This document shows positions 139 to 54,384 of a stretch of DNA of 64,000 nucleotides, in pieces; the first letter of the stretch is position 1, and each line of letters starts with the position of its first letter. Below the pieces are notes generated by a model, which saw nothing but the letters and a program-made list of their open reading frames with translations, made no database searches and was not told where the DNA came from. A program made the position numbers and the translations under genes. The DNA lies in assembly GCA_964016885.1 (NCBI GenBank), contig OZ024740.1:338582001-338646000 (forward strand), given 5' to 3'. This DNA comes from Eledone cirrhosa. Its lineage: Eukaryota.

Positions 139-490
139 TAAACGTTTCTATATGTATAATAAAACCAAAACAGTGCAGGTATGGACATAGAATAAAGAAT
201 GCAAATGCAAAAGATATTGTTGACAATTAGTCTTTTACCTTAGATTTATTTAAATGTCCTTAATTTTCGAGATAATATCTCTTCTTCAGCATGACTTGGC
301 AAGCTATTTAGAACACTGGTTTAACCGCTTTACTTCCCCCCGAAAAAGAGATATCTCGAAAATTAAGGATATTTAAATAAATCTAAGGTAAAAGACTAAT
401 TGTCAACAATATCTTTTGCATTTGCATTCTTTATTCTATGTCCATACCTGCATTGTTTTGGCTTTAGTATACATATACAAACATTTATAT
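139..490. repeat. Long inverted repeat between (TA)n tracts; probable Penelope-type pseudo-LTR pair with degenerate hammerhead core
   Basis: Arms ~139-289 and ~339-490 are reverse complements. Minus strand 289-261 reads CTGAAGA-a-GAGAT-att-ATCTC-GAAA-at-TA; stem I is poor. Confidence 0.7.
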
Positions 491-523
491 ATATATAAAT
501 ACCATATTTATTTTTTGATACCC

Positions 524-688
<165 letters not shown>

Positions 689-771
689 TGAAAAATAACC
701 GAGGTGTCCTACACGAGTGAAAGTATAAAGAAAAAAGGATGAAATCGAAAATGCAACTGGGGTCTTATTTA

Positions 772-808
<37 letters not shown>

Positions 809-903
809 TTGGTTCATTTACCGGTTTCGCAGTTCTTCTGCTTTTCAAAAGTCGAGTTGAGATGGAGGGTCTGTGGTTTTTCTCACATATTTTTTTCTTT
901 ATA

Positions 904-943
<40 letters not shown>

Positions 944-1277
944 AAAGTTCTATTTAAATTGTTGGGATACAACAAGCAAATATTTTTATAACTGATATAA
1001 AGCACTCGACAAATATTTGGAGTAGATATATGATATTAATAAATGGAAACTATATTTATAAAACCATATTTATTTCATTATATATATTTCAAGGATACCA
1101 AGTTAAATTATGGTATGCCTTCAAAATACAATATATAACAAGTAAGTATGTTTTGAAACAGTGAGCGAGTTTGAAATTAGAAAATATATAGCTTTCACCG
1201 TATTTTTTTTTAACTAAAGGAATTTTAGCTTGATAACGGGGTTTAGAACCCTCAGATAAATGGAAAAATATGAGTAT

Positions 1278-1348
1278 TGACGTACATGGGAGTCGAACCC
1301 ACATCGGTGGTTATCGCGACCACTGTGCTACCATTACACCAACACATC
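1278..1348 (-). tRNA. tRNA-like cloverleaf, non-canonical anticodon loop (pseudo-tRNA or Pol III cassette), copy 1
   Basis: Reverse complement of 1524-1594; anticodon stem GTGGT/ACCAC fully paired; A box and B box intact; followed by T5. Confidence 0.65.
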
Positions 1349-1523
1349 ACCCGTCTCTTTCCATTCAAATTAGAAACAAGCTAAAATTCCTTTAGTTAAA
1401 AAAAAATACGGTGAAAGCTATATATTTTCTAATTTCAAACTCGCTCACTGTTTCAAAACATACTTACTTGCCATTTAAACTCGCTAAGAATGTAGTTTCT
1501 AATTTGAATGGAAAGAGACGAGT

Positions 1524-1594
1524 GATGTGTTGGTGTAATGGTAGCACAGTGGTCGCGATAACCATAGATGTGGGTTCGACTCCCATGTACGTCA
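1524..1594 (+). tRNA. tRNA-like cloverleaf, non-canonical anticodon loop CGCGATA, copy 2
   Basis: GATGTGT TG GTGT AATGGTA GCAC A GTGGT CGCGATA ACCAT AGAT GTGGG TTCGACT CCCAT GTACGTC A; TTTTT at 1604-1608; lacks U33. Confidence 0.65.
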
Positions 1595-1794
1595 ATACTC
1601 ACCTTTTTCCATTTATCTGAGGGTTCTAAACCCCGTTATCAAGCTAAAATATATAACAGTTTTATAAATAGACATTGACGTACCCTTTTAAAAAGTGACC
1701 GTTGCTTTTGGAGACCATCGGGATGGCCTCCAAAAGCAACGGTCACTTTTTAAAAGGGTACGTCAATGTCTATTTATAAAATTGTTATATATTG

Positions 1795-1859
1795 TATTTT
1801 GTCTGATGAAGGCATACCATAATTTAACTTGGTATCCTTGAAATATATATAATGAAATA
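1795..1859 (+). ncRNA. Minimal type I hammerhead ribozyme with palindromic helix III
   Basis: TATTTTGT-CTGATGA-[AGG..ATACCA/TGGTAT..CCT]-GAAA-TATATA-TA-ATGAAATA; stem I 8 bp including G-U pairs. Confidence 0.8.
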
Positions 1860-1898
1860 AATATGGTTTTATAAATATAGTTTCCATTTATTAATATC

Positions 1899-1934
<36 letters not shown>

Positions 1935-1939
<5 letters not shown>

Positions 1940-2040
1940 TAAATCTGTTATTTTAATAAATATTTGCTCTAGGGTTCTTATATATTTGATATATATTTAT
2001 CCTTATCGAGCCCTCTTTGGGTTGTAGTCTTCACATTTAT
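1935..2040 (+). mobile_element. 3' tail fragment of the Penelope-like family seen at 30.7-32.6 kb
   Basis: Aligns by eye to 32476-32585 (aatctgttat..aataaatatttgc..tatatatttatcct.atcgagcc). Confidence 0.7.
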
Positions 2041-2056
2041 TATTATGACTATTATT

Positions 2057-2660
2057 GCTCTTTGAGTCTCAGTCATTGATATTATTTTACTGGAAAGTTT
2101 GTTGAAATGCATATCAAGCCACTACCTGCAGCCTCAGGCATTCAGACGTATCGGAGGGTTCTTGCTGTTCCCAGCAAGCATGCCTTTTGAAATGTTCCAA
2201 AAAGCGGGGCTGGACTAATCTTCTTTAACCATCCTTGGAAATTCTTGGAGATAGTACCTAGTGCGCCTATGACAATCGGGACGACCTTGATTTCATGGCA
2301 GTTCCAAATCCTTTTTAATTCCCACTTTAAATTCTGGTATCGGTTAATTTTCTCCCTCTCCTTTTCTTGCACTCTCGTTTCAAATGGGCAGGCTACATCT
2401 ACAATTAGGCACGATCTTTTTTTCCTTGTCCAAAAGCCCTATTGTGTTCTAATTTCTTGTCCGTCTGTATCCTAAAATCCCGTAGCACCTTCATCTGATC
2501 GTTTTCTATCACCGACTCTGGCTTATGCTCATACAACTTCTCAGAGTGTGGTAAATTGTTTAGTTTGCATAGATGCCAGTGGATCACTCTGCCTATCACA
2601 TCATGTCTCCAGCCTTTATAGGCTAGGTGTTTACACTCGGATACACTGTGAGCCACAATC
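2057..2660 (-). mobile_element. R4/Dong-type non-LTR retrotransposon family A, 3' fragment
   Basis: RLE C-terminus (RHD, EKINRYQ, VVPIVIGALG); 3' end abuts ATT repeats. Confidence 0.9.
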
Positions 2661-3505
2661 GAAGAAGATCAGCTGTTTGCTCTCTTCCGGAGAACTTTCA
2701 GCCCAGGGCCTACGGATAACTTCCAAAAATCCCTGGCTTGTCAGTGCTACCGGGGAGCGCTGCCGGTTCGAGATAAGCTCTACAGGCACAGAGGTGCCGT
2801 CAGCCGAGCCTGTCCGAGATGCGCGCAGAGCAACGAAACCGTCGTGAACCCACTCGTTCAGTGCCCGAGCATTGCTGACTTGTGGAGCTATGTTGAACAG
2901 TTTCTGTCGCGTGTAGGACTGATTCGGTTATCGACTGAGTCCATTGTGCAGATGGTCTCGCCGTCTTCCTTCGAGGAGGAAGGGCAGGCGGTTTTCATCT
3001 GCCTGGTGGCCATGGCGAAAGAGATTGTGTGTTGGACAAGGTTGAAAGGGTTAAAGACAGACACTTTCCTCTTCGGCGAATCCCTAATTAACTTTTTTCA
3101 AGTTTCACTTGAAGAGGAAAATCAGGGTGGAGAGGCAAGTGCTGCCTTCTAGCAAGTTTGTTGAAAGGTGGGTGAATGTAGCGAGAATGGTCCGAGTGAA
3201 CATACGTCTGTAGTTTGAGAAATGGAAAAATTGAGAGGGGGCGCTTGCCCTGGTGGTCAGGGTGGCCGTGGTCTTTTGTGTGGTTTTCGCCACGAGTAAC
3301 CCTCGGAGGCTTCCCCCTATTGGGGAATTTTTCATTATTTCAATTTTCATTTTTATTGTTTATATATGTTTCTATGTCTTTTTTTCTTTTCTTATATAAA
3401 TAACAAAAATATTTACACCCACAAAACCCACATCGTACCGTCCTGTACCGTCCAGTGCCGTCTGTAATGTTTTTCTTGATGTCAGCCCTTGTGGTCAATA
3501 AAGAA
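2659..3505 (+). mobile_element. Tx1/L1-type LINE, 5'-truncated 3' fragment
   Basis: Homologous to 15312-16129 (C-terminal zinc-finger region, 3' UTR); ends CCCTTGTGGTCAATAAAGAAA then (ATT)n. Confidence 0.88.
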
Positions 3506-3530
3506 ATTATTATTATTATTATTATTATTA

Positions 3531-4810
3531 TATTTATCTTGCTTTATGTTCATACGAGTTATCACCAAGTCACAACCAGTGACCTCAAGAGACAACAAGG
3601 TCCGCCATGTTCAAGAAATAACATACATGCACACACATGCATCTTTAGGTGTTTAGACTTGTGATGTACTTATATTGACAGAATCTTCCTTAGTATATGG
3701 GCAGTTCCCATTAGTACTATCTTATGTATTTCTCCTATACGCGGGTTTCCTGGGATTTGCGATAATTAATCATTAGACCCTTAGGTATCATTCCTAGAGC
3801 TCCTACAACCACTGGTATTGTTATAGTTCTCAATTACCACATTTTTCCAATTTCTATCTCCAGGTCCTTATACTTGCTCAATTTTTCAAATGTTTTTATA
3901 GATACATTCTTGTCTATTGGAACGGACATATCAATTAGCAGGCATACCCTCTTTTTAAAGTCCTTCAGTATTATATCAGGTCTATTTGCATCTATTTTTC
4001 GGTCTGTTAGGATGATAAAGTTCCACAAGATTGAGATGTGATCTTTTTCAAGTATGGGAGGTGGTTGATGCTCCCACCAATTCTTTTGATGGGGCAGGTC
4101 AAAATGCTTACACATTATCCAATGTATGTATTGTGCAGCTCTGTCATGCCTGTTTAGGTATTCGGTTGGAGCTATAGGACTGCACATTGAAATTATATGA
4201 TCAATGGTCTCTGGTTGTTTTTTACACACACGGCATAATGGGCTGCATCCATTTTTTATTATGTTGCTTGGTAATTTTTTGTTGGCAGACACTGATCTTG
4301 TGCTGATATAATCAGTCCTTCAGTCTCCGATTTCAGTCCAGAGGATGCCAGCCACTGATGGGTTAAAGTTTTGTCAACAACAGGATTGTTAATTCTTTCT
4401 GGGTATTTTTCATACAGAGGCTTTTCTTGCCATTTCTTAGCCAGTTTCTGTAGCAGTTCTTTCTTTGCAGTTACTTTTATCTGCTTTGCTTTTTCTGTGT
4501 TTTCCATTTCAGCAGTAAATGGGACTTCTGAAATGTGTAGTCCATTACTGTATCTTTGTGCATCTTTTGTAATGGAGTATGATCTTTTGATGCTTTCGTG
4601 TTTCAAAACGAGTTTGATCATCCAATCATGTGATACCCTTAGATATGTAGATAATCCAATTATTGCAGTTTTCAACGCAATATCTAACTGGATTAACCCA
4701 CGTCCTCCTTCTTTCCTAGGGAGATATATTCTATCTGTATCTGCCTTAGGGTGATGCATTCTGTGCATGGATAAGAATTTTCTAATTTTTGTATCGAGCC
4801 TACGGATCAC
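3531..4810 (-). mobile_element. R4/Dong-type family B, 3' fragment
   Basis: CRVC..HIISMC, RHD and NRPD motifs; near copy of 19658-20930; (ATT)n on both sides. Confidence 0.9.
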
Positions 4811-10713: not shown

Positions 10714-12650
10714 ATGGACGACTCAGAGTCACACCTTCCTCACAAACTAACACCTCACACCGACACCACCATTGTAAATATTACTACGTTTGCCAACACT
10801 AAAAATATAAGCAGTAGCAATATTTTAAATTTGTCTCATGCAGACATTCATTTGCCGCCATTACCAATGACTGCAGGTGTTGAAGCCGCCACCCCCACCA
10901 CCACCACAGCGACAACAGAAACAAAAGAAAGAAAGAAATTATCTCGTGACATCGAAATGGATTCACCCAAAATGAACTCTTCCACACCGAACACCACTGA
11001 CGCCACCACCACCACAACTGAAACTAAAATTAACAATAACAAAAATAACGATAACAACAACAGCAACAACAACAATGAGAATAAGAAAAGCACCCTGTCA
11101 TTTGCCAGAGTAGCAAAAAAGTGCGAAGCAATCCAGGTAACTCAGGAGGAATTAGAAGAAGCCAAAAGAATGGTAAAGAAAGATGGGTGCAGGGTCAGCC
11201 TCACCCCCCCCCCACCCCCACACACACCTAATAAAATGTAGCATCGGCGCCTATGCACCGTGTCTTATCGGACGATTAACATAAAATCGCGCCGAGTGGA
11301 ACGGGCATCCGAGTCCCAAATCCAAAACGCTTTGGGACATGTGTGGGCAAAAAAACCCACAATAGACGTGAGCAGAAATATGGAACCGTGGACGTGTTCT
11401 TTGGAACACCACAGGAGGCCAGAGAACACTCCATGGCCCCATTAAGAAGTGACGACTTCACACTCGTCCCAAGCTATTGTGGCCAGAGACTCGTGAAGAT
11501 CAGGGTGACCCACGTTCCACCGGCCACCGAAATTCCCTGGCTAATGGCTGCCGTCCTCTCCGGCATCTAGACCAACACCAAGATAATCGAAATAGCGAAA
11601 GAAAAGCAGGAGAACTGGTCCGGATCTGGGATGGAGCTCCTGATCCAAGCGGATCAAAAAAGCATTGAGGAGATCCCAGAGGTAATAGACCTCACTGACG
11701 GCAGCCACCTCACCGTAATCGTCGAGGGCAGAAGGCCTAGGTGTGTCGTTTGTGGTGAAGGAACCCACCTAAGGGTTTTCTGCCCTCAGGCTAAAAGGTT
11801 GAGGCCACCTCTCTTACCCACCCCAGTGACTCAACCATCAACACCACCAGCAGCAGAAATGGCAGCAACAACTGTAGCAGCAACAACAGAAGCAACTGTA
11901 ACAGCAACAACCCCAGCAACGGTAGCAAAACCAACACCACCACCACCCAACGCGCCAGAACTAGCACCAGCGCCTACACCATCCACCACGCCACAACCAA
12001 AACCAACGCCTGTGGAGTATTTTCCACTCCCCGACCTATCGCAATTGGAGACAGATTGTGACGACGAGGAGTGGGAAACGGTGTCAGGAAAAAAGAAAAA
12101 AGAAAAAGAAACCAAAATAGAAAAAAATTCTCATCCTTCCCCCTCCAAAAACAAAATACAGAGGGAAACAAATAAACTATCAAACAAAAAAGTTAGGACA
12201 GCTATGCCACCATCCACGCCAGATTCACCAACCCCATCTCCACAAACACCAACACCATCACCATCATTAACCCCAACACCACCTTCACCAACACCACAAA
12301 AGTCACCAAAAAGCGAAACAGAAACAAACCCACAACAAACGCAAACAAAACAAAACCACCAAAACGATACATACTACACAGCAATAAATTTGAACAACAA
12401 CCAATTATTACACTACATCCAACACAAAAAGACTACACAACAACCCAAAAGTTCACACCACCTCCACACATACAAATCACTCGCATCACACAGAAAACGT
12501 ATACGACACTAAAACAAAAATTCCCCAAAGACATCGGAGAATTCCGACAAGCACTCTCCAGGAGGATTTATAAGGACATCCTTCCGGAGGAGGCCAGAAG
12601 CAGTGAAGAGGATGGAGAAAACATCCTTCCTCTACGAGAAGTAAGGTAAG
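10714..12650 (+). pseudogene. Tx1 ORF1 (gag-like), frameshifted
   Basis: CCHC knuckle CVVCGEGTHLRVFC; Pro/Thr-rich linker; SFARVAK motif shared with 16371 ORF; end approximate. Confidence 0.75.
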
Positions 12651-12683
12651 TGGTCTTTCCCATCTTTTCCACTCCATTTCAAC

Positions 12684-15600
12684 ATGACCTCACTCAGAAT
12701 AGGCACCATAAATGCGCGTGGCTTGGGGTCGTCATGGAAGCAGGGCCACCTGATCAACGACCTCAGATCACTAAACATAGATGTAGTGGCCATCAGCGAG
12801 ACCAGAATCTCCGAAGCACGGGCCTTCGCACCGATCTTCGGTGGCTACGATGTGTACGCATCTCCCAGCCGTCCTGGATCGGGCGAAGGAGTTACTATGC
12901 TTTTTCGGAGAGGTTTGAATCTCGCCATACGGGCCATCTTCCTGGACCCAGAAGGTAAGTTGGTGGTGCTGGACGTGACCAGCGGAGAAGGGCAAGCTTT
13001 CAGGCTAGTGGACGTCTATGCCCCGACAGGAGCAGGGCGGCCTGATTTCTTCCAGCGTCTGGAGACCTTTCTAGAAACGTCCCGCTCTTTAGTGTTAGTG
13101 GGCGACTGGAATGGGATCTTAGATGCACACTGGGACTGTGTGGGATTAGCGGATAGGGGAGGAGGGTGCAAGAGCCTCACCAACCTGCTCAGGCGTTTTG
13201 AACTGTCTGACAGGTACCGATTGGATTTCCCGAATGTGCCAATGTGGACTTGGAAAAATCGTATCGGGTCATCCAGAGTATTTTGTAGGGAAATAGATAG
13301 GTCTAGCATAAGCTGTCCACAATTCAAGATAGTCAGCTACACAGACCACAAATTCGTGATCTGTGTGCTTGACTTAGATAGGCTTCATAGACGAGGATCC
13401 GGCTACTGGAAGCTAAACGCGTCCTTACCAGCGAACAAGGCCTACAGAGACCGGATTAGCGAACTAGTTAAGCGAGCGTTGACGGGGGCCATCGTCAACA
13501 ACAAGTGGTGGTTTGCTCTTAAAAGAGCGATTAGAATAGAGTCCATTAGGTTTAGTAAGTCTTTAGCTATAGAGAAAAATAGAGCAGAGGGAGAACTAGT
13601 TAGAAAATTAGACGAGGCGCTTAGAAAAGGCATGGCGACCGACGTACTTGCGGCGAAATTGGCCCTTGAACAATTCTTCAATGCAAAGAACGAAGGCTGC
13701 GTTGTCAGAGCTAGGGTGCGTGCTCTCAGACACGAGGGGACGAAAGCCGTCCAATGGGCCCGAGTGGCGGAGGCGCGTCGTGGCAACAAAGCCACGATCC
13801 GGTCTTTGGTGGACTACTACGGGCGAATGCTACTCGATCCCGGGCAAATGTGTGAAGCTTTTCAGCGACACTTCGCTCAACTGTTCGGGGGCATCGGTGG
13901 GCCGGATCGAGGGATGGACTTTAGTGTCTACCTCGACGGACTGCCGCGGCTCTCGGCCACTGAGGCGGAGTGTTGCGAAAAGCCGATAAGAGCCGCTGAA
14001 GTACGGGAGGCAATGACTGGCTGCACAAGGGGTAAATCGTCTGGTTTGGATGGTCTGCCCTATGAACTTTACGTACAAATGCCAGACTTGTTCGGGGGCC
14101 TCTTGGCGGACGTCTACTGCAGCTGGCAACAGAACGGGAGAATTCCCAGCTCTGTGAGCCGAGGAGCGGTGGCGCTGCTGAGAAAGGATCCGAACAAGGG
14201 GGATAACATAGATAATTTCAGGCCCATAACTCTGCTAAACACAGAGTTCAAGATGTTGGCCAAGGTGTTAGCAAAGAGGTTGGCGCTTGTCGCTGGTGGT
14301 CTGGTGGGAGAGGCGCAGACATGCGCCATTCCCGACAGATCCATCCACGACAACCTCCACCTCATGCGATACATCGAAGTGCGGGTAGCTAGGGAACCTG
14401 GCACGGGTGGGTTCTTGATCAACTTAGATCAGTCAAAGCTTTCGATAGGGTCGACCATCGTTACTTAGCGGCAGTCCCGCGCGAACTAGGATGCGGAAGA
14501 TCCGTGTAAGCATATGCGGACGATGTCACTGTAGTGGTGTCGAACGCCAAACACATCGAGGCGATCGGCACTACACTAAGAGAATACGAAGCGGTGACAG
14601 GAGCAATGATCAACCAGGAAAAGTCAGTGGGCCTGCAGCTCGGCACCTGGAGAGGCAGGTCTATGCCGTCCAACAGCATCGTCGGACGCTGGACGGACGG
14701 ACCGGTTAAATTGCTAGGGGTCTGTCTCGGTCCGGACCTCCAGACGGACAAAAACTGGGACGAGGTGACGAGCAGGGTGGCTTCTCTCACCAAGAAATGG
14801 GCGGAGAGGAAGCTATTCCTGAAAGGTCGAGCGGAGGTGGCTAACGTGTACATCGCGTCTGTCATCGGCTACCGCCTGACCGTCGTACCTTGTCCTAAGC
14901 CCCGCCTGACTGCGCTGGAGCGTTTGCTCTTTCGCTTTTTGTGGAAGGGACGCGCTCCGATGGTCAGGCTGTCCATCTGTTGTCAACACCCGCTACGTGG
15001 AGGGCTGGGCATGCCGTGGCTGATGATGCGCAGACACGCGCTCAGGCTTGACACCTCCACCTCTTCCTCGACGGTGATCAGGTGTGGTCGCCGCTTGCTA
15101 GACACGTCTTTCCCCAGCTCGTCTCCTTGACAGAGCTTCAGTCCTGGGTCAAGCGAAGACCGAGAGGGAGCGCTTGGAGACTGGAATGTCTTCAGGTGCT
15201 CACAGCCCTCGACCAATCGGGCAATGTGATCGGTGGAAACTCCACCTCAGCATTCTATAGAGGATTAGTGGAGGGGAAGAGCGACGACGTACTTGGGGAT
15301 ACTCTAGGCGTCGACGAAAATCAACTAGCCAATCTCTTCTGAAGAACTTTCGGGCCGGGGCCTATGGACAACTTCCAGAAATCTCTGACCTGGCAGTGCT
15401 ACTGAGGAGCCTTGCCAGTTCGGGATAAACTCTACAATGCATGGAGGTGCCGTCAGCCGGGCATGTCCGAGATGCGCGCAGGGCGACGAAACCGTCCTGC
15501 ACGCACTCGTCCAGTGTCCGAGAATTGCTGACTTGTGGGTTTATGTCGAACACCTGCTGTCGCGTGTAGGACGGATCTGGCTATCAGCTGAGTCCATCGT

Positions 15601-17171: not shown

Positions 17172-19615
17172 CCTTGAATCTCAGTCATTGATGTTGGTTA
17201 ACTGGAAAGTCCGTTGGATTGAATATCAAGCCACTACCTGCAGCCTCAGATATTCAGGACGTATCGGAGGGTTCTTGCTGTTCCAAGCAAGCATGCCTTT
17301 TGAAGCGTTCCAAAAAGCGTGAAGGGGCCGATTTTCTTTAACCATCCCTGGAAACTTTTGGAGATAGTCCCCAGTGCGCCTATGACAATCGGGATCACTT
17401 TGACTTCATGGCAGTTCCAAATCCTTTTCACCTCCCACTTTAGGTCCTGGTATCGGTTAATTTTCTCCCTCTCCTTCTCTTGCACTCTCGTGTCGAACGG
17501 GCAGGCCACATCCACAATCAGGCACGATCTTTTTTCTTTGTCCACAACCACCAGGTCAGGTCTATTGTGTTCCAGTTTTTTGTCCGTCTGTATCCTAAAA
17601 TCCCACAGCACCTTCACCTGATTGTTCTCCATCACCGCCTCTGGCCTATGCTCATACCATTTCTCAGAATGTGGTAGATTGTTTACTTTGCACAGGTGCC
17701 AGTGGATCACCCTGCCCATCACATCGTGTCTCCAGCCCTTATAGTGGGTCTGGGCTAGGTGTTTACACTCGGACACAATGTGAGCCACAGTCTCCTCTCT
17801 CTCTCCACAGATCCTGCACAGTGGGCTAGCCTCCTCCTTGTAGATATGGTGCTTCAACCACTTCGTTTTGAGGGCCTGCTCCTGCGCAGCCATTAGCATT
17901 CCTTCTGTAGCCTTTTTGAGGTCTCCTCTTCTCAACCAGTTCCATGTCTGTGGATCTCTAAATTCAGTTTTCTCAAAGAAGGTACTATGAAGGGATTTTC
18001 TCTTAAGGCTGCTCTTCCTCCTTGATGTTATTTCCTCCTTGGACATCCCCTGGCCTACTGTCCCCTCCTTCAGTACAGTTCTGAGCATTGGCTCCTTACT
18101 ATAGATCACGTATTTGTATAGGTTGTTTTTCTCCATCTGAACACAGTCCTCTATGCTGATAAGACCTCTTCCACCCTCAGATCTCCTTAGGTAGAGTCTA
18201 TCGACATCACTCCTCTTGTGGAACATGTTGTAGATAGTCAATAGCTTCCTAGTCTTCCTATCCATTTCTTTTTGTTCAGCAACATTCCATCTCAGAATTC
18301 CCGCACTGTACCTAATAATAGACACAGCTCGGGAATTTACTGCGCTTATGGCATTTCTGCTGTTCAGATGTGACTTCAATACGCTCCTTACTCTCCGAAT
18401 GTATTCAGTTCTTAACAATTCCTTCATTTTTTTGTTCTTTATGCCATCAGCCTCCAGGAAGCCCAAATACTTGTATCCTTCCTCAGAGTCAATTTCCTTT
18501 ATCATCTCACCTGTTGGTATCTGGATCCCGTTACTTCTGCTCAACCTACCCCTCTTCATCACAATGACTCCACATTTACCAATACCAAACTGCATACATA
18601 TATCACTGCTGAAAATACGGACAGTGTCAACAAGCACATCCAACTCCTTCTCACTTTTCCCGAAGAGCTTCAGATCGTCCATGAAGAGGAGGTGATTGAT
18701 GGTAAGCTCTCCCCTTCCCAACTTGTATCCTGCTCTCACTTTTCGCAGCATAATGGTCAAGGGCATCAGGGCAAGGACAAACAACAGAGGGGACAGGCTA
18801 TCTCCCTGGAAGATACCTCTCTTGATCTTCACGCTTCCCAAGGATACTCCAGTTGATGTCAACTCTGCCTCCCAGGACCCCTTACTCCTGCCTAGCAACT
18901 GTCTGATGTTATCTGCCACCCTGAAGATCTCCATGCTTTTGGTGATCCAGGAATGAGGCACCATGTCAAATGCCTTTCTGTAGTCTATCCATCCCATGGC
19001 AAGATCAATGTGTCTCCTCCTGCAATTCCCCATTACCATCTTATCAATAAGCAACTGGTCCTTTGTACCACGTGACTTCTTTCGGCATCCTTTCTGTTCG
19101 TCCGGTAACAAGTTGTTTGTGTGGAGGTGATGGTAGATTTCCTCAGACACAATGCTCAACAGTTTCCACATTACGGGCAGACATGTGATAGGTCTATAGT
19201 TGGTAACATCATTACCCTTGATTCGGTCTTTCATTATCAGAACTGTGGTACCTTTTGTCAACCACTCTGGCACCTCACCCGACACCAAGCAGTCATTGAA
19301 CATGGCCGTCAGCTTCGGGTGGAGGGATGTTAAATGTTTAATCCAATACCCCTGCACACCATCTGGGCCTGGTGATTTCCAGTTGGTTAGTTTTTTGGCT
19401 TGCCCCTTAAGAGTTTCAACTGTGATACTCAAATCAGTCTGTTGTTGTGCCTGCTCACCGATCTCCCTCTGTACTGTCTCAATCCACCCTGCCTGGGCAT
19501 TGTGTCTAACATCCTGCTCCCATATTCCTCTCCAGAATGTTTTAGTTTGTTCCGCCCCAGGGATCAAGTCGTTGCCTCTTTCTTTCCCCTCAAGCTGTCC
19601 AAACAGCATCTTCTG

Positions 19616-19618
<3 letters not shown>
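17172..19618 (-). mobile_element. Dong family A, 5'-truncated, with uninterrupted RT-CCHC-RLE frame (about 790 aa)
   Basis: Open frame 19617-17246: YRPITCL, QGDSLSPLLF, FMDDLKLF, CRICGEREETVAHIVSEC, RHD, NRPD..D..EK; flanked by (ATT)n. Confidence 0.95.
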
Positions 19619-19657
<39 letters not shown>

Positions 19658-19659
<2 letters not shown>

Positions 19660-22330
19660 AGTTGCATTTATCTTGCTTTATTTTCATACGAGTTATCACC
19701 AAGTCACAACCAGTGACCTCAAGAGACAACAAGGTCCGCCATGTTCAAGAAAGAACATACATACTCACACATGCATCTTTAGTGTTTAGACTTGTGATGT
19801 ACTTACATTGACAGAATCTTCCTTAGTATATGGGCAGTTCCCATTAGTACTATCTTTTGTATTTCTCCTATACGCGGGTTTCCTGGGATTTGCGATAAGT
19901 AATCATTAGACCCCTTAGGTATCATTCCCAGAGCGCCTACAACCACTGGTATTATATTAGTTCTCAATTTCCACATTTTTCCAATTTCTATCTCCAGGTC
20001 CTTATACTTGCTCAATTTTTCAAATGTTTTTATAGATACATTCTTCTCTATTGGAACGGACATATCAATTAGCAGGCATACCCTCTTTTTAAAGTCCTTC
20101 AATATTATATCAGGTCTATTTGCATCTATTTTTCGGTCTGTTTGGATGCTAAATTTCCACAACATTGAGATGTGATCTTCTTCAAGTATGGGAGGTGGTT
20201 GATGCTCCCACCAATTCTTTTGATGGGGCAGGTCAAAATGCTTACACATTATCCAATGTATGTATTGTGCAGCTCTGTCATGCCTGTTTAGGTATTCGAT
20301 TGGAGCTATAGGACTGCACATTGAAATTATATGGTCAATGGTCTCTGGTTGTTTTTTACATACACGGCATAATGGGCTGCATCCATTTTTTATTATGTTG
20401 CTTGGTAATTTTTTGTTGGCAGACAATTATCTTGTGGTGATATAATCACTCCTTCAGTCTCCGATTTCAGTCCAGATGATGCCAACCACTGATGGGTTAA
20501 AGTTTTGTCAACATCAGGATTGTTAGCTCGTTCTGGGTATTTTCCATACAGAGGCTTTTCTTGCCATTTCTTAGCCAGTTTCTGTTACAGTTCTTTCTTT
20601 GCAGTTACTTTTACCTGCTTTGCTTTTTCTGTGTTTTCCATTTCAGCAGTAAATGGGACTTCTGAAATGTGTAGTCCATTACTGTATCTTTGTGCATCTT
20701 TTGTAATGGATGCTTTCGTGTTTCAAAACGAGTTTGATCATCCAATCATGTGATTCCCTTAGATATGTAGAAAATCCAATTGTTGCAGTTTTCAACGCAA
20801 TATCTAACTGGATTAACCCACGTCCTCCTTCTTTCCTAGGGAGATATATTCTATCTATATCTGCCTTAGGGTGATGCATTCTGTGCATGGTTAAGCATTT
20901 TCGAATTTTTGTATCGAGCCTACGGATCTCTGTGCTTGACCAGTTGATGACATTGTAACTGTAGGTTACTACTGGTATGGCAAGCGTGTTTATGGCATCG
21001 ATCTTATTCCTTGCATTCAATTCCGTTCTTAAGATTGCTCTTACTCTGCGGTAACATTCCTTCCTTATCCTTTCCCTCATTGTCGAGTGCTTGGTTCCGT
21101 CTCCTTCACAAACACCTAGATATTTGTAAGTTTTTTCTTGATCAAGTTCTCTTATCACGTTCCTCCGATCAAGATTAATGTCTGAACTCTTCAGCAGCTT
21201 TCCTCTGGTGAACGTTGCTTTGGCGCATTTATCTAGTCCAAACTCCATTTTAATGTCATCACTGAACTGCTCCACAGTGGATAATAGCCCTTGCCATTGT
21301 TCATCATTTTTTGCAAATAGTTTCAGGTCATCCATGTAGAACAAGTGATTAATGGTTTTGTCATAGACTTTATATCTATGTTTTGTTTAATTGAGCATTT
21401 TACTTAATGGTATAAGTGCGATGCAGAATAAAAGCGGTGATAAAGAGTCACCCTGAAAAATTCCACAATTAATATTTACTTCTCCAGCTTCCAGTGATTT
21501 TGTTTCACTATTCAAAAGGAGTGTCGTTTTCCATGTCTTCATACTGAATGACAAAAACCTCCTGACAACGGGGATATTTTGAAAATCTCTAAACATTTTT
21601 CAATCCAACTGTGTGGCAAACTATCGAATGCTTTTTTATAATCTATCCAAGCAATTGATAGATTTTTGTGTCTATTATGGCAATCTTCCAGTATCTTTTT
21701 GTTAACCAAAAGCTGATCCTTACAGCCATATGAGCCTCGTTTACACCCTTTCTGCTCAATGGGAAATAGGTAATTTGTTATCAGGTGGTCATATGTATAT
21801 TCAGTTAGGACTGATGTTAAAATGTTATACATTGTGGTCAAGCAAGTTATCGGTCTGTAATTTTTGGGATTGTTTGTCTCATCATTCTTCGGAAGCAGGA
21901 ATGTAATGCCGTTAACTAGCCATGATGGTATCTTTTCTGGCTCCTTAACTATTTCATTGTAAAGTTGGGCTAACAGCTCATGAGACTGTGAAGGCATTTA
22001 TCCAAAAATTTTGTATTTTGTCTTTTCCTGAGGATTTCCATTTGCTGGTTTTTCTTAGAGCCAAGCGCAACTGTTCAACTGTTATATTTTCCCATATTTG
22101 TTCTTCAAGGTGAGCTGTATCTTTCATTTGTCTGTCCGTCCATGGGGCATGTATGTTATGAACTCTTTCTTCGGCCCAGATCTTTTCCCAGAATTCTTGC
22201 ACTTCCTCCTTGGGTGGTATTGATTTAGCAGTTATTGTTGACTTACCAATTTTTCTGTAGAAGTTTCATTGGTTGTTTTTGAACATATTATTGTCCTTAT
22301 AGAATCTAGATCGTTTTTCAAAGCCAGATA
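19658..22330 (-). mobile_element. Dong family B, 5'-truncated, frameshifted
   Basis: NYRPITCL, QGDSLSPLLF, YMDDLKLF, CRVC, NRPD; C-terminus LRKILSM. Confidence 0.92.
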
Positions 22331-30647: not shown

Positions 30648-30721
<74 letters not shown>

Positions 30722-32590
30722 GGTAAGAAACGTTTCTTGGAGGCTTTCCCGTCTATCTACAAACGTGCATATTTTCACCGACCATTCCACATATTGCAAT
30801 GAAGCTCTTGCTCGGAGTGGATTTGTCGATAAGGTAGCATATACAGAGTATGAGAATAGACCTAGGAAAAATAGATCCCGACACATTATATGGTATAACC
30901 CACCATATAATATGGAGGTGGCCACACCATTATCTAAGATCTTTCTCTACCTTATTATGAACCATTTTTCCCCCTACACATATATATAGTAAAACTTTTA
31001 ATAGAAATACCATTAAAATGTTTTACTCTACGACTCCTAACCGTGCACATAACATCACAGCTTCAAATTTTGCTAAATTACCTAGCCGTAGGAACACGTG
31101 CAACCCTGTAGCTAGTACTAACTGTAATTGTAGGAATCGGGTTGACTGCCCCCTATCCGGGAAATGCCTCTCTAGTAACATTGTCTACAAATGTAAGATT
31201 GAAACACCTACGTCCCGTAGAGCCTACATAGGGTTAACCGGCAATAGATTCAAGCAGCGTCTTTACATGCATACCCATTCTTTTCTTAGCCCTTTAAGAA
31301 GGAATATGACGTCACATTCAGCTTATATCTGGAGTCTAAAAGACAACCACACCCAATATAAGTTACACTGGGAGATCCTAGCTAGGACTAGATCGTATAA
31401 TGGAAATAAAGACCATATGACCTCTACGCCGCTGAAACCCTGGAAATACTCTACGCCAAAGACCACATCTTAAACAAAAAATCTGATGCAATTTCGGCTT
31501 GTAAACATAAATTGCACAAAACTTTCCTGTATTACAGCCCACATTATACCCTAACGGATAGTACGAACTATACGCGGATATTTTACGTCTTGATGTGGTA
31601 GCTAAGTATATGTTATTTTTATACTATTACTTATATATATCACCTGTATGTTTTGTGAAGGTACGTATACTTTCTCGTACGTATATTTGCTTGTATATGT
31701 TATAGGCGTATATATTATATTATATATACTGGTACATGTGCATATGGTTATGTGTATACGTGAGTTTTGCATCTGTATGCGGGTTCGTACGTATGTAGGG
31801 TGTGTGTATATGTGTACTTTGTGTTTTGGTTGACGTATGTTTAGCGAACATATGTGTATTTACATGTAGGTATGTGCGTGCGCGTTATATACGTATTTGT
31901 GTGTGTGTTTATTTATATACGTTTATATAATTATATGTATACACGCACACACACATATATATATATTTTTGTTTATATATATTTTATATGTATTTATTGT
32001 ATACGTTCGTATGTGTGCGGGTACAGGCGTTGCGTGGGTTCTGTATGTGCGTGCGTATTTTTTGGTGTACGTGCTTGTATTTCCATACCCATGGCGGGTG
32101 TTTTCGCGTATGCATGTGTATGTACGTATATGGATACGTGTATGTATATATTTAATTATAGTTGATTTCAATAAATTCTGTAATTTATTTACATTATTCT
32201 TAACTCTGGAGCCGAGAATCATTCGGTTTCCTAAATAGAATTTTAGAATCGTGGTTTTGTCTTTGCGCGTAATTGTTCTCACTGCTCCAAATAACGAGGC
32301 ATTATATTCGCTTTTTTTTCGTTCATTGCTAGGGAACGTCTCCACGAACCAAAGGATCGTCTTCCTGTTTTCCTTCGGTTGCAACGTTTTTCGCAATATT
32401 TGCTTCTGCGTTCACAGATTGATTTTTTTTGTTTCAAAAGATCCCGTTAAGGGTGAAAGCAGCGATTCTTTGCTTAAACTTTAATCTGTTATCTTAATAA
32501 ATATTTGCACTACGGTTCTTATATGTTTGATATATATTTATCCTCATCGAGCCATCTTAGGATTTTAGTCTTCAAATTTATTTATTATTA
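30722..32590 (+). mobile_element. Penelope-like element, 5'-truncated (RT thumb, linker, GIY-YIG, TG-rich 3' UTR/pLTR)
   Basis: NEALARSGF, IIWYNPPY, CNCRNRVDCPLSGKCL, IVYKC..AYIGLT..FKQRLYMHTHSF; between (CA)n and (TA)n. Confidence 0.9.
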
Positions 32591-52499: not shown

Positions 52500-54030
52500 T
52501 TTTTAAAAAAAAGAAAATCTCTTTTAGCCATCTGGCATCAACACTGGCTTAAGGTATTTGAAAGTTGCAAAGATTTTGTGCATGCAATTCGGGCAGTGTT
52601 CAGAGAGTTTATTCAGTAGCGGGCTCTTGGCAAATAATATTTCGTAGCTCTCTGAAATACAAAGATCGCAGCACTTGTGTCCTCCCTTGTATGAGCGCGT
52701 TTTCTGGAGTATTTTCCATTTAAGCGTAAGGGGCAGGGGTCCTTTTGAGGTCCCAGATATAGGAGGCAAGTGTTGTCTGATTGGATTTGTCCGGTCTTCT
52801 GAAAGAGTGGGTATGGGCATACCAACGGGTCTTAAAATTATTGGAAGTCATGCCTATGTAAGTCTTTTTGTTGTCGTCATCGGTGCCTGAGATTACATCA
52901 CATTTGTATACCATGTCATTTGTCAGGCATTTGTTTTCAAGTGGGCAGGTTCCTTATTTAGGCAGTTGCACAAGGCTTATGTCCGGGGATTGGGTTCAGA
53001 GGTAGTAGACTTATTTACATTTTTAGAGTTGAGGTTGGCTATATTCGTAGCTAGGTTAGGTGTAGGAGAGTCTTATTGTGTTCTTATTGAAGATGGCGTA
53101 GTACCTATGTTGTATGGGGAAGTGTGTGTTCAGCAAAATGAAGAAAATCCCAGCTATAGGTGTAGAGACCTCTCTATTGAAGAGAGCGCTGTACCAACTA
53201 ATCTGCCTATGCCTATTACTCCTAGGTATTCTTGGGGTCGTTTCTAGTTAAGTGATCTTTTCTTTAAATCCGCTGCGGGCGAGGGCGTCATTGTAGTAGG
53301 AGGCGAAGGCGTTAAATATATCTTCATTGGCCGAGAGGCCGGAGATTTTAATTGAGACGCTTTTTACTAAGTCATCAGTGTTGTTTTTCGGGTGGTTAGA
53401 TTTAACATTAATATATCTAAGGGACTCGTTAGGTTTGTGGTACGGGTAATAGAGGGAAGTATCTAGGTTGAGAGTGACATCTAAAAAGTTGGCCCTAGTC
53501 ATATTAGATTCTATTGTTATACTGAATCCTCCTAGATTACGGAAGAACGAGCTTAAGTTTCTCCGAAACCCATCAGTGGTTCTGGGGTTAACCTTGTGCA
53601 AGGCGAAGAGACTGTCGTCTCGGTATAATCCTCCGGTGAGGCCAGTGAAGAGGTACTTCAGGTGATGTAAAATGTGCAGGCCCACGAGGTCGCTTCTTTC
53701 AGGCAAATCACTCACTTCCATGCTGATGTCAAAAAGGTCTGAGACAACTTGTTGATCCAGTAAGATCCCTCGTGGTGTAGAAAGGTCTTACGGGCGTGGA
53801 GAATTACATCTTGCTCAGCGTATGTGATGGTGGTAAAATTCCTGGCAAAAGCAAGTGCGTCCTTCAGGAGGGGCTCTGAGATAGAAGCATAGTAGTCTTC
53901 TATGTCGAGTTGCAGAAAGCGAGTGTGGCGTTTGTCTGGCAATTTTTGGAACCAAAAGATTGCCTCGGATGTTCTGCTCCAGAGTGGGAGTGGTGAGGCA
54001 GCCCGCTATGATGGTAGAACTCTATCGATG
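52500..54030 (-). pseudogene. Penelope-like RT + GIY-YIG ORF, 5'-truncated and frameshifted
   Basis: FLQLDIEDYYASI, GGLYRDDSL, NFLDVTLNL, YINVKSNHP, VYKC..TYIGMTSNNFKTRWYAHTHSF, CDLCISE. Confidence 0.92.
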
Positions 54031-54154: not shown

Positions 54155-54313
54155 GTATATAGATATATGACCAAAGATTAGTATGGTTCGTTGATTACTC
54201 AATGAATACAATTTTACAATAGATTAGAAGCACTCAACTGGAAAAAGGTTTTCCTGGAGTTTTTAATATTATTTAAAATATTAACAAATGAAAAATATTC
54301 TCATAGTCAAAAT

Positions 54314-54384
54314 ATATACTTTATTATATATATTTCAAAGGTACTGTGTTTTTTTTCAGTACGTCCTCATCAGACAAAATATAT
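54314..54384 (-). ncRNA. Minimal type I hammerhead ribozyme (element 54165-54405)
   Basis: ATATATTTTGT-CTGATGA-GGAc GTACTG..CAGTAC cTTT-GAAA-TATATA-TA-ATAAAGTATAT; 11-bp stem I. Confidence 0.85.

Follow-up and report, generated by a model that had tools for sequence, protein, structure and literature searches.

The partners of tRNA-derived SINEs are, in the available part of a review, LINEs (PMC3747384), and the small elements described as dependent on Penelope-like elements (PLEs) are, in the available reports, derivatives of pLTRs, with or without hammerhead ribozymes. PLE insertions are described as containing partial tandems and an inverted 5'-truncated copy, with a tail of 30-40 bp at one end, and the Naiads among them use (TA)n targets and are without hammerheads (PMC8557442). 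Minimal hammerheads with a palindromic helix III are known from PLE pLTRs (PMC4209133). A PLE protein has been reported to cut and extend both strands at AT-rich DNA, starting at two internal sites of the RNA that set the tail, with no requirement for hammerhead cleavage (PMC11167929). The accessible text of one study leaves undecided whether the template of head-to-head PLE palindromes is antisense RNA, copied by self-priming, or sense RNA (PMC3846280), and the origin of tandem and inverted PLE structures is listed as unresolved in another (PMC8557442). Elements that join a tRNA head to a hammerhead are a known kind as well, represented by Sm-alpha of schistosomes, a tRNA-Gln-derived SINE with a hammerhead (PMC2770079).

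The locus described here lies in a stretch of 64,000 nucleotides of Eledone cirrhosa DNA (the window), in which all coordinates are given unless stated otherwise. It is a nested insertion, in which a tRNA-like family, T, sits within a hammerhead-bearing Penelope-like element, H. The window locus itself is an ordinary example of nesting. T is likely a Penelope-dependent tRNA-derived element, and we consider it probable that the locus is nested as described and that T derives from a tRNA, is non-autonomous and has its copies made in trans by an enzyme of the Penelope type. An element of tRNA origin with the anatomy of a PLE would amount to a SINE that depends on Penelope. We found no tRNA-derived, PLE-mobilised element in the literature, although subscription journals, Repbase/Dfam and bioRxiv supplements may hold one; an octopus repeat annotation, in its available part, reports many unclassified SINEs and mentions no T-like element (PMC13282606).

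Two independent families at one locus

An earlier note on this DNA described a four-fold nested inversion with the layout A' B C' B' x C D' D A, and repeat searches of the window uphold that geometry. Four inverted pairs, 1222-1377 with 1495-1650 (156 nt, 97%), 1023-1157 with 1773-1907 (89% ungapped), 1132-1232 with 1377-1477 (97%) and 1640-1719 with 1722-1801 (94%), are flanked by two (TA)n tracts, one at 901-940 on the left of the outer H insertion and one at 1899-1934 on its right. The note also placed a 71-nt cloverleaf with A box, B box and T5 run in segment C, which is borne out by Rfam RF00005, ARAGORN and the sequence itself, and a minimal hammerhead with palindromic TATATA helix III in segment A, where it can be read directly.

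The proposal that these parts form a single SINE/retrozyme hybrid fared less well. We searched the source genome of 3.0 Gb with the tRNA segment and, independently, with the hammerhead segment (40 candidates scored and 30 loci kept for each), and mapped all window segments on the kept loci. Elsewhere, segment C is always accompanied by B and x as a 259-bp unit, which is family T, and segment A is accompanied by D and L, which together represent family H. Among 161 distinct T clusters, a count that includes two near-identical segmental-duplicate pairs, a single one abuts H, and it is the window's own; 5 lie 16-120 bp from H across a (TA)n tract, 12 are farther off, and for 143 the fetched locus contains no H at all. 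Conversely, T was found in none of 29 other H loci (two of which are one locus) and in none of 20 longer H loci. The outer layout of the window, with a head-to-head H junction of the same form, recurs without T at three H loci (L033, L036 and L044).

The T insert comprises 507 bp (1141-1647) and lies in the left arm of H. Ten empty-site H copies are uninterrupted where T is inserted in the window, and 11 bp of their sequence stand on both sides of the insert. The motif ATATATAACA, previously taken for a junction microhomology, is instead this 11-bp target-site duplication, with its left copy at 1130-1140 (+), which includes the junction microhomologies, and its right copy at 1648-1658 (+). The second supposed microhomology, CAAGCTAAAAT, is the T unit running on from segment C into segment B. 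Given the empty-site H copies, the 11-bp duplication and the independence of the two families, the locus is a nested insertion. The T copy would have landed on ATATA within H through a preference for TA-rich targets common to both families.

Since only 1 of 161 T clusters abuts H and H copies without T share the outer layout, we favor two elements over a hybrid in which, as in Sm-alpha, a tRNA cassette drives the hammerhead. Such a hybrid could draw on the right tRNA-like copy, which lies about 200 nt upstream of the intact hammerhead on the plus strand, so that a chance read-through transcript is possible at the window locus only. Against it stand the target-site duplication and the membership of H in a coding PLE family, and the hammerhead core CTGANGA is absent from both strands of the window T insert and of a 6-kb sample of a T array (below). 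Nor did Rfam detect a ribozyme in T within the window. We therefore reject the hybrid as a family and regard it as exceedingly improbable: the window differs from Sm-alpha (PMC2770079, in its available part) in that tRNA part and hammerhead belong to separate families. The earlier description of a non-coding, Penelope-moved element fits the tRNA-like family by its insertion anatomy, and fails for a joint tRNA/hammerhead element.

On sequence grounds, H is a canonical PLE with a C-terminal endonuclease (EN), and the window holds its 3' ends. The left arm (1031-1140, minus strand) carries the inverted hammerhead segment, from which 7 core nucleotides are missing between 1122 and 1123, and continues into a long 3' end with a tail of about 90 bp (941-1030, minus strand) that is confined to this arm and follows segment A in other H copies. 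The head-to-head junction occupies 1648-1793, with D in the minus arm, D' in the plus arm, a centre at about 1720 and 3 differences in 73 nt. The right arm (1782-1898, plus strand) has a short 3' end 47 nt past the predicted cut, and includes a minimal type I hammerhead that is intact and of the kind known from PLE pLTRs, with palindromic helix III (1795-1859, plus strand; PMC4209133). It is formed by helix I (1795-1802/1852-1859), the core CTGATGA at 1803, helix II (1810-1839), GAAA at 1840 and TATATA, with cleavage predicted from these letters after position 1851; an Rfam scan of the window reported no hammerhead family at E<=1. As the earlier note had observed, the left copy has lost its core, which is kept in 41 of 42 H copies read at other loci. 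The 7-nt deletion lies about 7 bp from the target-site duplication, and could have arisen as a side effect when T was inserted or the insertion was repaired.

Walking upstream from H ends, we encountered an AT-rich UTR of about 1.8 kb and then a coding frame. At the most informative locus, L103, the order is inverted pLTR, a 466-aa RT/EN frame, the ~1.8-kb UTR and pLTR. The motifs LYRDD and VY..YVG and a Cys cluster occur in the frame, which shares 35-46% identity with comparable frames elsewhere in the genome and has as its nearest Atlas clusters ones that bear RVT_1, HTH_animal and GIY-YIG (0.93-0.95). Scans of Pfam, PDB and NCBIfam did not recognize the H ORF, and no full-length intact H ORF was present among the loci retrieved. 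A single ORF with RT and C-terminal GIY-YIG is thus found at L103 and related loci, which ties the hammerhead segment to a PLE pLTR end, as had been proposed. H further shows an inverted 5'-truncated arm and a one-sided tail, and by a rough pattern count a long end is paired with a short one at 16 of 29 H loci. In the organization of the ORF, the minimal type I hammerhead with palindromic helix III, and the inverted 5'-truncated arm with a one-sided tail at an AT-rich target, H resembles the canonical EN+ PLEs as far as these are described in the available text of PMC4209133, PMC3846280 and PMC11167929. Unlike those, it has a tail of about 90 bp rather than 30-40, and the window copy consists of two 3' ends only, the left with a dead hammerhead. 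Family H is otherwise ordinary, minimal hammerheads with palindromic helix III in pLTRs being already known.

An assembly artefact as the source of the nested inversion has a slight opening in that no read or contig examined spans the whole composite. However, the paired arms differ from one another (5/156, 3/73 and the 7-nt deletion), the target-site duplication is clean, and the same architectures occur at many loci. The head-to-head T junction is also present in short reads (joint 1275-1585 in X1; 1265-1587 in X10, one read start). We give this explanation almost no credence.

Sequence and insertion anatomy of the tRNA-like family

The repeat unit of family T is 259-290 bp long and has a tRNA-like cloverleaf but no hammerhead. 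We number it from the first cloverleaf base of the right window copy, so that t1 is position 1524 and canonical A58 is t56. The right cloverleaf (1524-1594, plus strand, t1-t71) scores 44.3 bits and the left (1278-1348, minus strand) 42.4 bits against RF00005, both above the gathering score of 29, and both are called by ARAGORN. The right copy has its A box at 1531-1542, its B box at 1574-1584 and A58 at 1579. Its leader (1507-1523, plus strand) is able to pair with 1597-1613, lengthening the acceptor stem by 17 bp (15 of the 17 pairs are possible in this copy), and within this longer stem lies the terminator-like T5 run (1604-1608, plus strand; t81-85), 10 nt past the cloverleaf. The left T arm (1139-1377, minus strand) begins 29 nt before the tRNA-like part and has a long 3' end at t206. 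The right arm (1378-1650, plus strand) is a partial tandem that starts at about t118 of one unit and continues across the following one as far as t127, an atypically early 3' end at an AAT microhomology that falls outside both 3' clusters described below.

The cloverleaf has a short variable loop and a non-standard anticodon loop. A tRNA-Gly(TCC) gene from this genome matches it in the A and B boxes as well as in the D arm and T loop; the acceptor and anticodon arms differ from that gene yet are still able to pair. The cloverleaf of the window copy folds at -31.4 kcal/mol versus -34.5 for the lowest-energy fold, and in a T unit at another locus (L009) the cloverleaf is itself the lowest-energy fold. 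The ARAGORN label tRNA-Ser(CGA) was dropped, in view of the two loops and of older subfamilies in which the anticodon loop differs. Rfam matches to miRNAs were also set aside, since they score below gathering and reflect the palindromes.

T is abundant. Exact motif matches number at least 1,000 in the genome overall; counted motif by motif, there are 252 for a 29-mer of the young cloverleaf, 752 for an older loop variant and 947 for a 21-mer of the 3' part, with none for any reversed control. Copies differ from the commonest letter of each column by about 1.5%, subfamily-diagnostic columns excluded. Older subfamilies, with 77-95% similarity to the young one, retain the cloverleaf, the leader/trailer stem and the architecture. 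T is also present in a sequencing run bearing another species label (X5).

To characterize the insertions, we took genome-ordered loci from a 3' motif (70 of the first 100 matches listed), which left 61 loci after removal of 9 overlapping duplicates. The arms are head-to-head at 42 loci, single at 18 and tail-to-tail at one. Nearly all 3' ends (99 of 104 arms) fall within t155-176 or t195-215, mostly at t161, t169, t206 and t213. In 36 of the 42 two-arm loci a short 3' end is paired with one about 40 nt longer, which amounts to 36 of 37 loci where both ends could be classed (p=3e-10). Longer arms cross unit boundaries as partial tandems, and (TA)n lies directly at 239 of 278 outer ends in a larger set of loci. 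At subfamily columns the arms of one insertion agree in 792 of 853 cases, and agreement falls to 54% when arms of different loci are compared. Both arms often derive from one source, given that rare alleles are common to the arms of one insertion in 39 of 467 cases (8.4%) compared with 772 of 149,862 (0.5%) between loci; gene conversion could contribute to this likeness. The arm arrangement, the short and long ends, the partial tandems and the (TA)n targets match the PLE traits set out in the accessible parts of PMC8557442 and PMC3846280, and the two-strand, two-start-site biochemistry in that of PMC11167929.

The pattern is not that of LINE-type insertion in a single orientation with a fixed 3' terminus at these 61 loci. 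Twin priming inverts the 5' part of an insertion and leaves its 3' end unduplicated, which counts against a LINE-mobilised T. We nonetheless weighed the reading of T as an ordinary LINE-mobilised tRNA SINE, its inversions made by twin priming and (TA)n serving as its tail, because it would explain the tRNA head with A and B boxes and the 5' ends close to the tRNA start, and because many LINE copies lie within the window. It does not account for outward-facing arms that carry the same 3' sequence, one about 40 nt longer, or for partial tandems that continue beyond the unit boundary, and the fetched flanks contain no common 3' end. We hold it to be very unlikely. A MITE or foldback DNA transposon inserting at TA would likewise explain why most T copies are palindromic and lie in (TA)n. 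Yet the two arms differ in their outer ends, which change independently of each other even where loci have a centre in common; 18 of the 61 loci have a single arm, the centres are variable, tandems occur, and the duplication at the window copy is 11 bp, not 2 bp, making this origin hardly credible.

At least 10 different hammerhead-bearing PLE-like ends lie near (TA)n tracts in the fetched loci, and T copies often stand directly after such ends (for example at L129, L208 and L238). The (TA)n tracts are thus insertion hot spots that these elements have in common. Two pairs of near-identical T insertions about 0.5 Mb apart (L149/L150 and L151/L152; C1, ~211.7-213.1 Mb) suggest segmental duplication.

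Compared with described systems, as far as the available text of each report goes, T combines traits that have been found apart. Like non-LTR retrozymes (PMC7229834; bioRxiv 10.64898/2026.07.22.740005), it consists of non-coding units, here of 259-290 bp, that occur as monomers, partial tandems and a long array, with dependence on PLEs, likely in the case of T; it differs in having a tRNA-like cloverleaf in place of a hammerhead core. Non-autonomous PLEs such as MRC1 of Chlamydomonas, the Naiad elements (PMC8557442) and short non-autonomous Heliconius Penelopes (PMC6685494) share with it the tandem and inverted insertions, the 30-40-bp tail, the preference for (TA)n and the lack of a canonical hammerhead, but their descriptions speak of a 3' region similar to that of an autonomous partner and of no head derived from a tRNA. 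With tRNA SINEs that have LINE partners (PMC3747384), T has in common a tRNA-related part that contains A and B boxes, 5' ends close to where the tRNA begins and more than 1,000 copies in subfamilies. Unlike such SINEs, it has two internal 3'-end clusters, head-to-head duplication and circularly permuted tandems, and no LINE-like 3' end was found.

5' ends and a proposed route of copying

Among T arms that reach t70, 60 of 76 have their 5' stop at t56-66, just 3' of tRNA A58. Junctions between arms fall on the palindromes t61-64, t64-67 and t66-69, and where an arm joins (TA)n the junction is on the AT at t62-63. The stop is seen in both haplotypes (47 and 11 arms) and in single arms too. Loci that have the same centre differ in their outer ends, so the stop represents a recurring event and not one founder. 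N1-methylation of A58 (m1A58) blocks reverse transcriptases, and the pile-up at t56-66 is likely the stall point of the copying enzyme.

A second cluster of 5' ends, at t-12 to t+8, accounts for 26 of 86 A-box anchors at loci chosen by the cloverleaf motif, after 5 calls were removed as mere internal mismatches. Pol III would be expected to start a few bases upstream of the cloverleaf, and RNase P to cut at the tRNA 5' end; the cluster is compatible with a Pol III start just upstream of the cloverleaf or with an RNase P cut. The earlier suggestion of a built-in Pol III promoter is therefore compatible with T, to judge by these ends, though not as part of a hybrid with the hammerhead. The T5 run would halt most Pol III transcripts before the start sites for copying, which counts against simple Pol III transcription; read-through of T5 is required, because the short and long 3' ends both lie beyond it.

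It is conceivable, though unlikely in our judgment, that T is PLE-mobilised and that the pile-up is due to something other than m1A58, either a structural stall in the T arm or an RNA 5' end left by cleavage in the T loop. Copies that read through show no excess of mismatches at t56 of the kind misreading of m1A would leave (A is kept in 109 of 113), and most junctions are at t61-64, within the T stem, with just two arms, the furthest of the cluster, reaching t56-57. On the other hand, the longer 17-bp and acceptor stems are passed with little loss (0-0.12 per 11 nt outside t56-66, in a table that leaves out loci duplicated under other ids), and the ends seen are at those microhomologies that lie closest to A58 on its 3' side, with the furthest arms of the cluster ending at A58 itself.

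A stall at m1A58 would fit into the following series of steps. A T RNA with the polarity of the tRNA would be transcribed, likely by Pol III acting from the A and B boxes and reading through T5, or by read-through from tandem copies. A PLE protein would cut (TA)n on both strands, and reverse transcription would start at two internal sites, t161-169 and t206-213, generating two outward-facing arms with a tail of about 40 nt on one. Because the T RNA would fold, and would likely be methylated in the manner of a tRNA, most cDNAs would stop at m1A58 (t56). Two cDNA ends would then be joined at the nearest 4-nt palindrome (t61-64, t64-67 or t66-69), or a single arm would be joined to (TA)n at the AT of t62-63. 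Those cDNAs that passed the block would continue as far as the 5' end of the RNA, close to where the tRNA begins, or into the previous unit. T is likely copied by a PLE enzyme from sense RNA. The pile-up of junctions just 3' of A58, in a cloverleaf on the sense strand, favors a model in which sense RNA is copied starting from each of the two cut strands and the cDNA ends meet at short palindromes. An RNA of about 260 nt makes the template question directly testable in the in vitro PLE system described in the available part of PMC11167929.

A more specific version, which we consider doubtful, casts T as a ribozyme-free counterpart of retrozymes. Here the cloverleaf would promote Pol III transcription, RNase P would replace the hammerhead in cutting multimers to monomers, A58 would be methylated, the 17-bp stem would hold the ends for a template jump or ligation, and a Penelope enzyme would copy the product. 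If true, thousands of T junctions in the genome would record the template strand and the stall site of Penelope reverse transcription in vivo.

The case for PLE mobilisation of T is one of anatomy, because no autonomous partner was found in a search that sampled a small part of the genome's PLEs, for which a first look gives 37,135 candidates. No 3' end common to T and any PLE was seen in the fetched loci, and their flanks share only other repeats at (TA)n hot spots and no partner element. A genome pattern search for a hammerhead-bearing relative of T returned only 4 matches, all unrelated-looking. Five T motifs had no match in the Naiad supplement (PMC8557442), a weak test, as the long sequences in the accessible copy are incomplete and its lines broken.

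A T satellite and other elements

A strand bias among matches to the older loop variant pointed to a tandem array of T on C28, from 19,440,624 to ~19,716,500 (L314-L321 and L340), spanning about 276 kb in one orientation. The units are 290 bp long and belong to an older subfamily; division gives about 950 of them, and the sampled stretches are gap-free. The array begins after (TA)n at t9, and may represent one old T copy that grew into a satellite. It is unlikely to be the source of the dispersed old copies, since t67 is T in array units and C in dispersed ones. One compensatory change, G-C to C-G in the D stem, is present in 46 of 191 sampled units. We did not count covariation in the array as support for the cloverleaf, because several stem changes are uncompensated, including G.G at 47-63 (64 of 191 units) and G.A at 28-40 (39 of 191). 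SINE-derived satellites of squamates, in the available description (PMC10702118), are similar in that a dispersed tRNA-type repeat also occurs in tandem; T differs in the whole-unit array and in dispersed copies with PLE anatomy.

Several other elements were observed along the way. At L103, positions ~300-4130 of the minus strand hold seven tandem units of about 630 bp, each with a hammerhead-like CTGATGA...GAAA core, and by its sequence this looks like a non-LTR retrozyme array. The window contains a further hammerhead-type PLE end at 54266-54381, 73% identical to segment A, beside a broken PLE RT/EN frame (52759-54029, minus strand) from a family with many long open frames in the genome, and a GIY-YIG-type fragment of another PLE family lies at 30720-31473 (plus strand). 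A cluster of non-LTR retrotransposon copies occupies ~2100-22800, with an endonuclease-RT frame at 12645-14468 (plus strand) and an 832-aa RT frame at 17246-19744 (minus strand) that has a zf-RVT-like stretch and that we take to be R4/Dong-like. Close to the nested locus, at 270-480, another inverted repeat (~177-260 versus 381-470) appears by eye to be of the head-to-head-end type.
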